Source: Amoebophrya sp. A120
Taxonomy: Eukaryota > Protista > Dinoflagellata
DNA length: 64,000 bases
Direction: 5' to 3'
Assembly: GCA_905178155.1 (NCBI GenBank)
Contig: CAJINV010000003.1
Span: forward strand, 10,473,732 to 10,537,731
Below are positions 667-51,765 of this stretch, one piece after another. Numbering within the stretch: position 1 is the stretch's first letter; each line of letters begins with the position of its first letter. The notes below the pieces were generated by a model, which saw only the letters and a program-made list of their open reading frames with translations, had not been told where the DNA came from and did no database searches. The position numbers and the translations under genes are program-made.

Positions 667-3600
667 GTGAAGGCTGCTCATGACTCGGGACGATGCTGCT
701 TTGGCACGATTGACAGTTGGCTTGTGTACAACATGACAGGTAAGTTTGTCACCGACATCTCCAACGCCTCGCGGTATCTGGCAATGGATCTGAAAAAAAG
801 ACTATGAAACAAGTGAACTGCAACTCCGCCTCCGGTCCCGCACATTTGCCATGCAACATGGCGATAAATAATATATAAATTCCATGGCTCGGAACCTCCC
901 AATAGAATAGCTCACCGGAAAATTTTAGTTGATTTCACTGGGGAACGATTTTCGTTTCCGGGCACCTGACCGCGTCGGACACAGCTACATCGCCGGGCAA
1001 AGCGGTCCGACTACACCTGCGGAGAAGTTGACGTCCCACCTTTGGGCCGCCCAAAAGTGAAAGCTTGCTAAAGCTTCAGGTTGAAAAACTGAAACCTCGC
1101 TGAGAAGTTGCGGCAGTCGTAGTTTTGGTCGTTTGTCAAACAGTGAAACTTCACTGAGATTTCACTTTTTGAGCGCATTTTTTAAAAGATCTCATTTTGG
1201 GGCCACCCCGCCCAAGCGTGAGATTCCGGAAAAAGTGAAATCTCACTGAGATTTCACTTTCTGCACTGGAGCCCAGTGCGCCATGGAAAGTGAAATTTTT
1301 CAAAAAGTGAAACTCCACTGGAGTTTCACTTTTGGAAAGTGAAACTTTGGAAAAATAAAGTGAAATTTCACTGGAAAGCGAAGTTTTTCAAAAATTGAAG
1401 TTTCACTTTTTGAAGGTCTCATGTTTTAGCCTCCCAAAAGTGAAATTTTTCAGAAAGTGAAATTCCAGTGGAATTTCACTTTTCAAAAGTGAAATTTTGG
1501 AAAAAGTGAAACTCCAGTGGAATTTCACCCCATTTCCCAGTGGCGCACTGGGCCCCAGTGCCGCACTGGAGCCCAGTGCGCCACTGGGAAATGGGGTGAA
1601 ATTCCAGTGGAATTTCACTTTTTGAAAAATTTCACTTTTTGAAAAGTTTCACTTTTAAAAGTGAAATTCCACTGGAATTTCACCCCTTTCCCAGTGGCGC
1701 ACTGGGAAGTGGGTGAAATTCCAGTGGAATTTCACTTTTTGAAAAATTTTACTTTTTGAAAAATTTTACTTTTGGGAGGCTAAAACATGAGACCTTCAAA
1801 AAGTGAAATCTCACCGAGATTTCACTTTTTTTCAGTGCCGCACTGAACAAGGGGTGAAATCTCAGTGAGATTTCACTTTCAGAAAGTGAAACGTCACCGG
1901 GATTTCGCTTTTTTTCAGTGCCGCCCCGAAAAAGGAGTGAAATCTCACTGAGATTTCGCTGCGTTTTGAATTTCCAGTCGGGCTCCATCCTTCCCTCCCT
2001 TTTCTGAAGCAAATGGCGTGAAGGCATTTTTAAGAGTGTGCATGTATTGCACAGGCACAGGAATTGCCCGCTTTGTATTATTCTTATTGTATCTGAATCG
2101 TAGTGGTATTGGTAGGAGATCATGGCCCGCGCAGCATTTTATTTGTAGGGGGGCACTCATGAAGCAGGGAGCGCCACGCTGTGTAGCTGCCCAGAACTTC
2201 CAGAACTTCAACTTGTCACGCAAACACAGCCAATAGTTGTATATGTATAATATAGCTAGGCACGGAAGCTCCCTCAAAGATAACACAAGAGAAGTCGATG
2301 GGCCACCAGAAGACGGAGCTATCTGGTAACATTTACCCAGCTATGTGCATCTTCCAATAGACGCTGAAGACCGCAGGTTTAAGAAAGAGGTCTCACTGGG
2401 TGTGAGTTCATTCATTCACTACACTGACTGCACTACAGTCGCAGTCCTGCTCCAGGCGTGACTTTTTCATGCAAAGAGCTGCGCTTCTCAATCTCGGGGC
2501 GGCGTACACACAGGCTGTTTGTGTTGCTAAACCACACGACGCCCGTGTTTTTCAAGTGACGGGGCGCCGGAGGTCAAGTTCTTGCACACGACTATAAAAC
2601 AAATGGGACGCGGCGATATTGAAGGAGCTGGGCATTAGTTCTGACTCGCTTCCGGAGATCGTGTCAAACGTGGCCGATTTTGGTAAGGTCAAGGAAGAAT
2701 TTTGCGCACCACTCGCCGGCGTTCCCGTCACCGGAGTGCTAGGAGACCAGCACGCAGCACTCGTTGGGCAAAATTGTTTTTCGCCTGGCGGTATGCGTCG
2801 CAAATTACTAAATTAGTACTACATGCCTGGGTCTAGATGTTGAAAGTAAGTTGTAATCGTGATGCTCCGCTGGTGGCGCTGCATTTTCTAAGAATTTGCA
2901 TCGTCCCCATTTGCGTCCAGCTGCATGCTGCAACCAAGCAGAAAAATTGTTGAGCGGGCCAAGCGGGTCTGTAGTACGGAACGGGCGTCCTAAGTAGAAC
3001 GTCGTCCCGCTTTGGGACGACATCTTCAAAGGCGCAGCACTATTTCTATTCCGGGAAATGCAGTGTAGTGCTTAGGAAGTAGGATAGTATGCATTTGGCG
3101 TCCGTGCTGTCATGTGGTTTTTTATTGTGCCTGATTAACATCGACATCCTATCTGGCTACTCCGGAGTGCGATCGTGGCGGACGGGCGGACCTGTACCGG
3201 CGACAGGCGCTATCCATCTTCCAAGCGCCCGACCACCAAGCAGGCGTGGAGCCAACTCGTGCGCTTCATCAATAATAACTTTTCCAGGCCCAGACAGTTT
3301 TGCAGTGCATAGGCGAAGCCAAGAACACATACGGCACAGGTTGCTTCATGATCGCCAACACTGGACCGACAATAGTCCCCTCTACGAAAGGCTTGCTGAC
3401 AACGATAGGCTATCAGATGGGAGTGGAGAGCCCTACTATGTAAGTCTAAGTATCGCTACGGTTTTTAATATAATTACACCTAAAGACAAAAATAAAAAAA
3501 AACTCTACTGCAACTACCTGAAATAAGGTATGATGAAATTAGATTAGCATTGGATATCGGATGGATAACGAAACCGGGGCGCGGCTAATATGACCGCTGA

Positions 3601-50500: not shown

Positions 50501-51765
50501 ACATAAAAAGTTTTTATTTATCAATCGGGCGGGGCCTTGCTCACAACTAAGCCAGAGCGGAGTCTATCGATTGCCGATTGATGGAACGACGCAAGGGAGC
50601 CGGCAAAAGTAGCGCCCTTCTGAGGCGCCCAGCGCACCCATTTTCGTCGATTTGGGGCGCCCAAAAAGGGGCGCCGGAAAAATGTAGAAAAAAGGAAAAC
50701 CGCAAAGCCTCATGGTATAGGCGTCATCTTTGCCTAGTTTTGGCCCTCGTGAAAGCCGCGAACAAAACCAGGCATAGCAGAGGGGGACGAGGGGCAAAAA
50801 GCTGCGCTTTTTAAAACAAAAAAAAACAAAGGCCGGCAAAAGCTGAAAGCCAGTCCCCATGCTATGGGCCCGATTTAGGGGGCTCATAGGGCCGCCCCTG
50901 GAGGAGGCCCAGGGGGGGCATAGCGTGCGGGGAAGCTCTTTCTCTTTGAAAGCAGGAGGGGCGCGACTGTCGGTCGTGTTTTTAGTGGTGCGGCGTGCCA
51001 TGCGGAGTAATGTTATGCGCGACGCTATGATGGACACAAAAAGTAAAAGAGCCATCTTTTTTTTACACTCAAGGAAGGGCGCCGGTCCGAGAGGACGGTC
51101 GCGCCCAGTCAAAAAAACCCAGCGTGACCTCACTACCCCCGCCTCGGCGGCCATAATTGGTGGTCCTGTGTAGGTAGTTCAGCAGCCTGGCAGATCTTGC
51201 GCATGTTGATGCTGGATGGATCATCACAAATTCCGAAACACGACTAGAGAGCGCTCCTTCTCTACTTGGGGCTCCGCATGAGAAGTATTTTCAGCGCGCA
51301 GACTTGCATTACAGCGAGCTATGGGGAGGGGACGTTTTTACATCGGATACAGGTCAAGGAGCTGCGCTACCTCTACGACTACATCGGGATCAAGCCGGAC
51401 AAGAGTTTGGTGGAAAAGCCCGACATCGTTGCCCACATTCTTCGCTCAGGCTGTGTCACAGTCATCACACCGCCGCGTGTAGGTACGGATTTTGCGATTT
51501 TTGCTGCGACGCGGTCAACGTCAGTCTCGATGGTTGTAACGGGTGATCTCCACTGACTTGTCATTTCATCAAAATAAAAATATGTAATAATTGCTCTCTT
51601 TCTTCAATGCTTCGCCGAATGACCTTGACAGATCAACTACCCGTGAAAGAGTTGAAAGTGATGATGCGCACGCTCGGCATTCCCGCCTCTGGGTGCATCA
51701 CAAAGGAGGATCTCGTTACTGCAATCCGGAGGCACCCCTGGGTCGTTTTTGACGCAAATGACTAG
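47555..51765 (+). CDS. RING-H2 zinc-finger protein (putative E3 ligase) with Gly/Pro-rich N-terminus and two C-terminal SAP-like repeats; start uncertain
   Basis: CPICLCDF...LPCL|HMFHPECAEQYLEEHQTCPVCK; MQVKELRYL..IGI...VEKPDIV; LPVKELKVMMRTLGIPASGCITKEDLV; stop TAG at 51763-51765. Confidence 0.88.
47805..48171. mobile_element. TA...TA element with diverged flanks
   Basis: Flanks AAGCA/AATTT; degenerate IR; removing element+5 restores the frame (FGPSSPDPGG). Confidence 0.55.
48282..48607. mobile_element. Introner family A copy
   Basis: TIR TATCCTGTACAGAAACGT / ACGTTTTTACACAGGATA; flanks GACGC/GACGC; join gives PPQTHHFQQ. Confidence 0.9.
48830..48979. mobile_element. TA...TA element
   Basis: Flanks CCAGG/TCAAC; removing element+5 is in frame with the RING exon, whereas the nearby GT..AG pair (48829..48976) is not. 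Confidence 0.7.
49448..49757. mobile_element. TA...TA element interrupting the RING motif
   Basis: IR TATAATAGGGAAGTGAG / CTCATTTCTCCCCCATA; flanks TGCAC/GGGAC; removing 315 nt gives C-L-H-M-F-H. Confidence 0.82.
49897..51349. mobile_element. Introner family A copy with nested repeat; its flanks happen to supply GT-AG
   Basis: TIR TATCATGAGGAAAAACGTCCC / GGGACGTTTTTACATCGGATA; flanks CAAGT/CAGGT; join gives SMQVKELRY. Confidence 0.88.
50455..51155 (+). repeat. Dispersed ~700-bp repeat, copy 2
   Basis: Colinear with 26715-27410. Confidence 0.78.

Follow-up and report, generated by a model that had tools for sequence, protein, structure and literature searches.

In a 64,000-nucleotide (nt) stretch of the genome of the dinoflagellate Amoebophrya sp. 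A120 (assembly GCA_905178155.1, contig CAJINV010000003.1, positions 10,473,732 to 10,537,731 of the forward strand; hereafter the window), transposon-like, non-canonical introns leave the transcript at a fixed place within a flanking direct repeat. These introns carry TA...TA stems flanked by 5-nt repeats, an arrangement that an earlier note, made from the sequence alone, had pointed out and that is indeed seen at the places it cited. They have the form N-UAU...AUA-NNNN: the 5' cut lies 1 nt before the stem and the 3' cut 4 nt after it, that is, after base 4 of the repeat. This fixed base-4 junction is very probably the general rule for these introns. The earlier note had held that mismatched flank copies locate one fixed cut inside the repeat, which is borne out by the junctions in transcript contigs; its choice of base 3, with a footprint of 2 nt before and 3 nt after the stem that would match GU and YAG, was off by one base.

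Transcript contigs were compared with positions 20401-40400 and 44001-64000, or 40 of the 64 kilobases. The contig sets (X1-X4) come from one study with two samples, and their 'RNA' label is the tool's guess. The raw RNA runs X7 and X8 yielded 1 and 0 matching reads, and the junction evidence consists of assembled contigs. In X1-X4, canonical GT-AG introns and non-canonical introns are skipped in the same records, and all were assigned to the + strand because of the open frames and the GT-AG introns in the same genes. The DNA run X5, a control for 20401-40400 only, is continuous across the introns and has a depth of 0 at the spliced joints; the joined forms are absent from DNA, and the elements of this part are present in DNA and removed from transcripts (joints in X1, X3 and X4). 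Among the joints listed there were 30, four of which occurred in DNA and were dropped before counting (20692/36762, 31427/32146 and 36614/36767 in the DNA run only, 29781/29878 in DNA too). One exon-skipping joint (48826/49757) was kept apart, one joint was split in two at a 12-nt micro-exon, and one was added from a loose contig end. The resulting set comprises 27 junctions, 7 canonical and 20 non-canonical, and 19 of the 20 are anchored by a TA stem; the remaining one, at 62723, has no such stem and was excluded from the anchored counts. For base counts, three introns of a published glycerol kinase model were added to the 20, giving a set of 23. These introns and two associated features are as follows, with the two copies of the repeat and the range of possible cuts.

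802..2600 (+), non-canonical intron, glycerol kinase, AAGAC/AAACA, base 4 only (residues of the published model, no RNA)
2791..3315 (+), non-canonical intron, glycerol kinase, GGCGG/GGCGA, base 0-4 (published model)
5498..5932 (+), non-canonical intron, glycerol kinase, ACGCT/ACGTT, base 4 or 5 (published model; Leu in A25 P0002)
20357..20704 (+), non-canonical intron, GCATT/ACGTT, base 3 or later, contains 20557 (X4 loose end)
20934..21284 (+), non-canonical intron, TCGCA/CTGCA, base 2-5 (X4 contigs)
21340..21881 (+), non-canonical intron, GCAAG/CCAAG, base 1-5 (contigs)
21930..22158 (+), non-canonical intron, perfect repeat, uninformative (contigs)
22203..23066 (+), non-canonical intron, CAACG/CAGCC, base 3 or 4 (contigs)
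31389..32188 (+), non-canonical intron with long inverted ends, CGAAG/CGAAT, base 0-4 (one X4 contig)
32189..32200 (+), 12-nt micro-exon between two non-canonical introns (one X4 contig)
32201..33428 (+), non-canonical intron, GAGGG/GGAAA, base 4 only (one X4 contig)
33465..33838 (+), non-canonical intron, perfect repeat, right end ACA (X4)
36595..36789 (+), non-canonical intron, perfect repeat, member of a repeated family of about 150 nt (contigs)
39214..39598 (+), non-canonical intron, TGTCG/CGAAG, base 4 or 5 (X1, X3, X4; absent from DNA run X5)
39776..39901 (+), non-canonical intron, CGGAT/CAGAC, base 2-4 (contigs)
47804..48175 (+), non-canonical intron, AAGCA/AATTT, base 4 only (X1, X2)
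48281..48611 (+), non-canonical intron, perfect repeat (contigs)
48829..49013 (+), canonical GT-AG intron at the proposed test site 48825, GT at the base-4 register (contigs)
49447..49761 (+), non-canonical intron in a RING domain, TGCAC/GGGAC, base 3-5 (X2)
49896..51353 (+), intron, CAAGT/CAGGT, base 3-5; GT-AG if cut at 3, N-TA if cut at 4, product identical (contigs)
54507..54769 (+), non-canonical intron, GTGCT/GCGGT, base 4 or 5 (contigs)
54913..55318 (+), non-canonical intron GT..AA, ACTGG/AAAAA, base 4 only (contigs)
56514..56901 (+), non-canonical intron, perfect repeat (contigs)
59764..60211 (+), non-canonical intron, perfect repeat (X2)
62727..63696 (+), non-canonical intron TT..AT, no TA stem, single possible cut, T at +2 (contigs)

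All 19 stem-anchored junctions are compatible with a cut after base 4, which is the sole possible one at 47800, 54909 and 32197. Base 3 is excluded at five junctions (47800, 54503, 54909, 32197 and 39210) and allowed at 14, base 5 is excluded at six, and another six are perfect repeats that carry no information on the cut. No junction rules out base 4, and no other single position fits every readable junction. If cuts fell uniformly at random on places 0 to 5, the chance that base 4 would lie in all 19 allowed blocks is 5e-6, or 3e-5 when corrected for six positions. The prediction of base 4 for 39210 was written before the second contig comparison, where X1, X3 and X4 agreed with it. The junctions at 32197 and 31385 each rest on a single X4 contig. 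Base 4 also fits the seven canonical introns, at one of which (27861) an Asn in the A25 orthologue of the 25280 transporter supports base 4 or 5. RNA editing was considered as the origin of the base-4 pattern and rejected, since different edits would be needed at five junctions.

Protein evidence from the glycerol kinase gene leads to the same position. One exon matches a published Amoebophrya sp. A120 protein at 100%, and the exons of this protein map to 667-6556. The published residues DLKKRKW are obtained only with a base-4 cut at 798, where base 3 would give Ser, and GMTLQAG is obtained with base 4 or 5 at 5494, where base 3 would give Phe; base 4 thus fits all three junctions of this model and base 3 fails in two. 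The A25 orthologue P0002 has Leu at the 5494 site and Arg at the place matching the 798 site (DLRSRQW, in an alignment made by eye). The kinase model was probably built on RNA of the same strain and is therefore not independent of transcript data in general. A degenerate repeat block at 1100-1980 sits within the kinase intron 802-2600; similar blocks rich in AAAAGTGAAA/TTTCAC words occur at 7840-8780 and 32340-32900.

From two protein clues, the earlier note had restricted the cut to after base 3 or 4, and this was right. The RING His takes base 3 from the upstream copy (TGCAC/GGGAC, 49443/49758), and an X2 contig joins 49445/49761; GEAK in the kinase takes base 5 from the downstream copy (GGCGG/GGCGA, 2787/3312), according to the published model. 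The note had then settled on exactly base 3 by way of CAAGT/CAGGT (49892/51350). This element can be read as GT-AG at base 3; cuts after bases 3, 4 and 5 nevertheless give an identical product, and so it cannot choose between 3 and 4. Nine sites had been proposed for a test with complementary DNA (798, 2787, 5494, 20557, 20930, 22199, 47800, 48825 and 49443). Eight of these are junctions, all of which allow base 4; at three of them base 3 is ruled out, from the contigs at 47800 and from the protein model at 798 and 5494. The ninth, 20557, is no junction: it lies inside intron 20357-20704, which is marked by the X4 loose end and by X1 and X3 contigs that start at 20704. The neighboring intron 20934-21284 is kept in X1 and X3 contigs and skipped in X4, a possible case of retention or slower splicing.

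When the 23 introns are aligned at the base-4 register, position +1 is free (G in 11), +2 is T in 23, +3 is A in 22 and +4 is T in 18. At the 3' end, -1 to -4 are free, -5 is A in 22, -6 is T in 21 and -7 is A in 22, with a T-rich stretch at -15 to -18. The arm motif described for A120 (TAT, seven free bases, A-run) is present, with TAT in 18 of the 23 and A at +13 in 17 and at +15 in 16. GT, which together with GC marks the start of U2-type introns, stands at the 5' end of 11 of the 23, and AG at the 3' end of none, in a set that had been chosen as non-canonical. T occupies +2 in all four non-canonical RNA junctions with one possible cut, and A occupies +3 in three of those four. All seven canonical introns in the contigs begin G+1 T+2 A+3; the two classes therefore have a common register. 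Since the U of the stem is intron position +2, in register with the canonical GUA, the sequence signal is reduced and not lost. The suggestion of the earlier note that the spliceosome 'lost the sequence requirement' was accordingly too strong, as U+2 and A+3 are kept and part of the 5' signal remains. The other Amoebophrya strain points the same way: in Table S4 of Farhat et al. 2021 (PMC7789003), all nine top A120 motifs start N-T and all nine top A25 motifs start TT, and the A25 arms start TTA.

The two ends of an intron appear to act together. Arms pair with their own partner at -16.5 kcal/mol, a value reached in 0 of 5000 permutations, compared to -9.9 kcal/mol with a foreign one, and they pair best in a +2/-5 register. 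An AG lies within -3 to +4 of the 3' site in 8 of the 11 elements that start with GT, and a GT-to-AG join occurs in none; at 22199 (intron 22203..23066), the GT donor is not joined to a CAG that is located one base early. In the exon-skipping joint 48826/49757, the canonical donor at 48829 is joined to an AG inside the end of the 49447-49761 element, and this AG precedes the site used by the element's own donor by 3 nt. Because a canonical donor picks this earlier AG in the same element end, the 3' site seems to depend on the partner end. The skipped form has a contig depth of 208 and 216, similar to the included form; its RING domain loses the first half, and a frameshift leads to an early stop.

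A wider view of the repeat comes from the family of 36595-36789. Metagenome contigs scanned with one arm of this element contain at least 131 loci; among the matches listed (140), a partner arm lies 120-200 nt away in 118, at 113 unique sites. These loci have no match to the window at E 1e-20 and are represented here by DNA only. Among the matches listed, the repeat is a perfect 5-nt one at 78 of the 113 sites and has one mismatch at 26, and a perfect repeat of 3, 4 or 6 to 9 nt occurs at none. No particular sequence is required in it: a base-3 cut would yield GT-AG in 0 of 104 family copies and a base-4 cut in 3, and mismatches are spread evenly over the five bases (5, 9, 6, 3 and 9; p = 0.37). 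Family copies stand in both orientations without bias (45 forward and 54 reverse of 99, by a strand caller that was correct in 15 of 18 known cases), and many DNA contigs end at the arms. We infer that the repeat is the target-site duplication of a short non-autonomous DNA element. A drift towards GT was also considered, as G+1 is found in 11 of 23 window introns and in 29 of 104 family copies (p = 0.03), but base-5 mismatches show no bias to G (1 of 7), and we do not rely on it. A de novo scan of the window for a TA stem plus repeat found no excess over shuffles, except for perfect repeats with stems of at least 8 nt (3 real versus 0-1); since such a scan performs near chance, the elements were defined from transcript joints. 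An Rfam search of the window gave 0 matches.

We somewhat favor the view that a relaxed spliceosome removes these introns, with the hairpin setting both ends and the U2/U5/U6 core catalyzing without G+1 or AG. The hairpin would replace the early definition of the intron by U1 and U2AF and fix both ends; it would then open, and U6 would read U+2/A+3/U+4, while G+1 and the final AG would no longer be checked. Any cut within the duplicated repeat would take out one copy and restore the exon. Base pairs in the P complex of yeast join G-1 to G+1, A-2 to the branch A, and U+2 to A51 of U6 (10.1101/212811). Since G+1, AG and the branch A are checked there against one another, while U+2 has its partner in U6, a joint loss of G+1 and AG with U+2 kept would be coherent. 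A more far-reaching version, which we put forward tentatively, is a U1-independent spliceosome: the hairpin would define the intron, U+2/A+3 alone would set the 5' cut, and the 3' cut would be measured from the hairpin, at 4 nt, without the need for an AG. Insertion of TAT...ATA with a 5-nt duplication would then create a perfect intron in either orientation, and A25 would use the same U+2/A+3 register with other ends. If true, such a hairpin code would explain how tens of thousands of elements invade coding sequence. Several points weigh against a relaxed spliceosome. No CURAY-like branch motif was found at the 3' end of the introns (T at -9 in 5 of 23), although A stands at -7 in 22 of 23. 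The helix between +2..+4 and -5..-7 would need to open before U6 could pair. No U1 was found in A120 (Farhat et al. 2021, PMC7789003). Arm pairing is weak (-5.9 to -6.7 kcal/mol) in 4 of the 23 introns, near canonical introns and with the cut unchanged, and intron 62727-63696 has no TA stem at all. The transposon end itself begins with the T at +2, a base that may therefore be constant for reasons other than splicing, and the count of 23 of 23 arises partly by construction because several cuts are equivalent in some introns. Finally, the contigs carry no strand, hide rare cuts and derive from a single study with two samples.

Alternatively, a separate structure-guided nuclease and ligase, of the kind proposed for nonconventional introns in Euglena, might act at distances of 1 nt upstream and 4 nt downstream of the hairpin, the GU-like register being a coincidence of the transposon ends. 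The two ends do move together, AGs are ignored, the arms pair in a fixed register, the family inserts in both orientations, U1 was not found, and a comparable spacer code has been described in Euglena (PMC12501133). We nonetheless regard this as unlikely, given that the cut register coincides with the canonical GUA register in seven of seven introns, that T stands at +2 in the top motifs of both strains although the element ends of A120 and A25 differ, and that the cut does not shift where the stem is weak or missing. An improbable alternative is that the spliceosome sets the 3' site by a ruler of its own, of the kind known from Yarrowia and Trichomonas: the A at -7, or else the T-run from -15 to -19, would serve for branching or binding at a set distance from the 3' cut, and the hairpin would be only a transposon relic. 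Fixed short distances from branch to AG exist (PMC2483917), and the A at -7 is kept in the four elements where +4 cannot pair; the T-rich stretch would likewise suit a ruler. The exon-skipping joint speaks against it, since a canonical donor takes the AG 3 nt earlier in the same 3' end; in addition, the CURAY context is missing, one element has G at -7, and an A at -7 is no feature of canonical introns (3 of 7). As to the cut itself, a position that varies inside the repeat, with base 4 merely the commonest, could appeal to the six perfect repeats, to the loss of rare forms in contigs and to the legend of Fig. 3 in Farhat et al. (PMC7789003), which calls the sites variable; the random-cut probability given above and the agreement of every junction with base 4 make this very improbable. 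Least credible of all is a cut after base 3 with a GU/YAG footprint and no sequence requirement. Base 3 is allowed in 14 of the 19 RNA junctions and 49892 can be read as GT-AG there, but five junctions and the published protein at 798 and 5494 exclude it, so that it is refuted as a general rule and might hold at most for 49892 itself, and the family copies yield no GT-AG from it.

The window contains further features of interest. Directly before both junction ends of intron 62727-63696, a 7-nt word is repeated in register. More elements of the same anatomy, with no listed joint over them, lie at 11625-11918, 18745-18996, 24825-25016 and 41215-41525, the last with a right end other than ATA. 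Tandem arrays were seen by eye at 10580-10705 and 35360-35840 (a short repeat of TTAGC type and a longer GC-rich unit).

Over 60% of the introns of A120 and A25 lack GT-AG, and the question of how these strains splice them, apparently with no U1, was raised in 2021. A fixed register replaces 'no signature' by a testable rule, U+2 with spacers of 1 nt and 4 nt, and allows intron borders to be re-annotated. It also indicates which spliceosome contacts would be relaxed (G+1/G-1 and A-2/branch A) and which kept (U6-U+2).

As a class, the elements of the window are already known, since Farhat et al. 2021 (PMC7789003) describe non-canonical A120 introns with TAT-starting inverted ends and 3-5 nt direct repeats. 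Our elements resemble these Amoebophrya A120/A25 introner elements in the direct repeat at the boundary, the TAT ends with an A-run after seven bases, the repeated families and the lack of GT-AG; a 5-nt boundary repeat, inverted ends that pair and a repeated family (tested for 36595-36789) were all found here. That account reports no clear dinucleotide signature and sites that vary relative to the hairpin, and it leaves the border position undecided, whereas the cut in our elements has a fixed position, after base 4, that puts U at +2. Farhat et al. place the repeats 'four nucleotides upstream' of the inverted repeat in their text and list only N-T starts for A120 in their Table S4, so part of the rule may show in their figures. 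We did not find a fixed register in A120 stated in the accessible parts of the literature (including PMC12130899, PMC11282704, PMC11453091, PMC12005148, PMC12787238 and 10.1101/2022.06.08.495308), a search that covered text and supplementary tables of Farhat et al. The class is thus known and the corrected base-4 rule probably unreported. Introners of the Micromonas type (PMC11282704) are likewise short and non-autonomous, with inverted ends and a target-site duplication of which one copy leaves with the intron and the exon is restored; there, the element supplies GT/GC and the duplication AG, whereas the duplication here is free and only 3 of 104 family copies would be GT-AG. The nonconventional introns of Euglena (PMC12501133) share the lack of GT-AG, the paired ends and fixed spacers between cut and stem, with the longer one at the 3' side. 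Their signature, N3-CDG ... CH'G-N5-6 followed by a purine, is not what the base counts of the 23 introns show, namely N1-UAU ... AUA-N4 with the first base of the stem at the spliceosomal +2. Finally, the introns of Fritillaria borealis (PMC13326754) are also transposon-derived and non-GT-AG in a genome with a U2-type spliceosome; specific end motifs and U1 are kept there, with U2AF duplicated, whereas the A120 introns have ends that are free at +1, -2 and -1, in a genome where U1 was not found.

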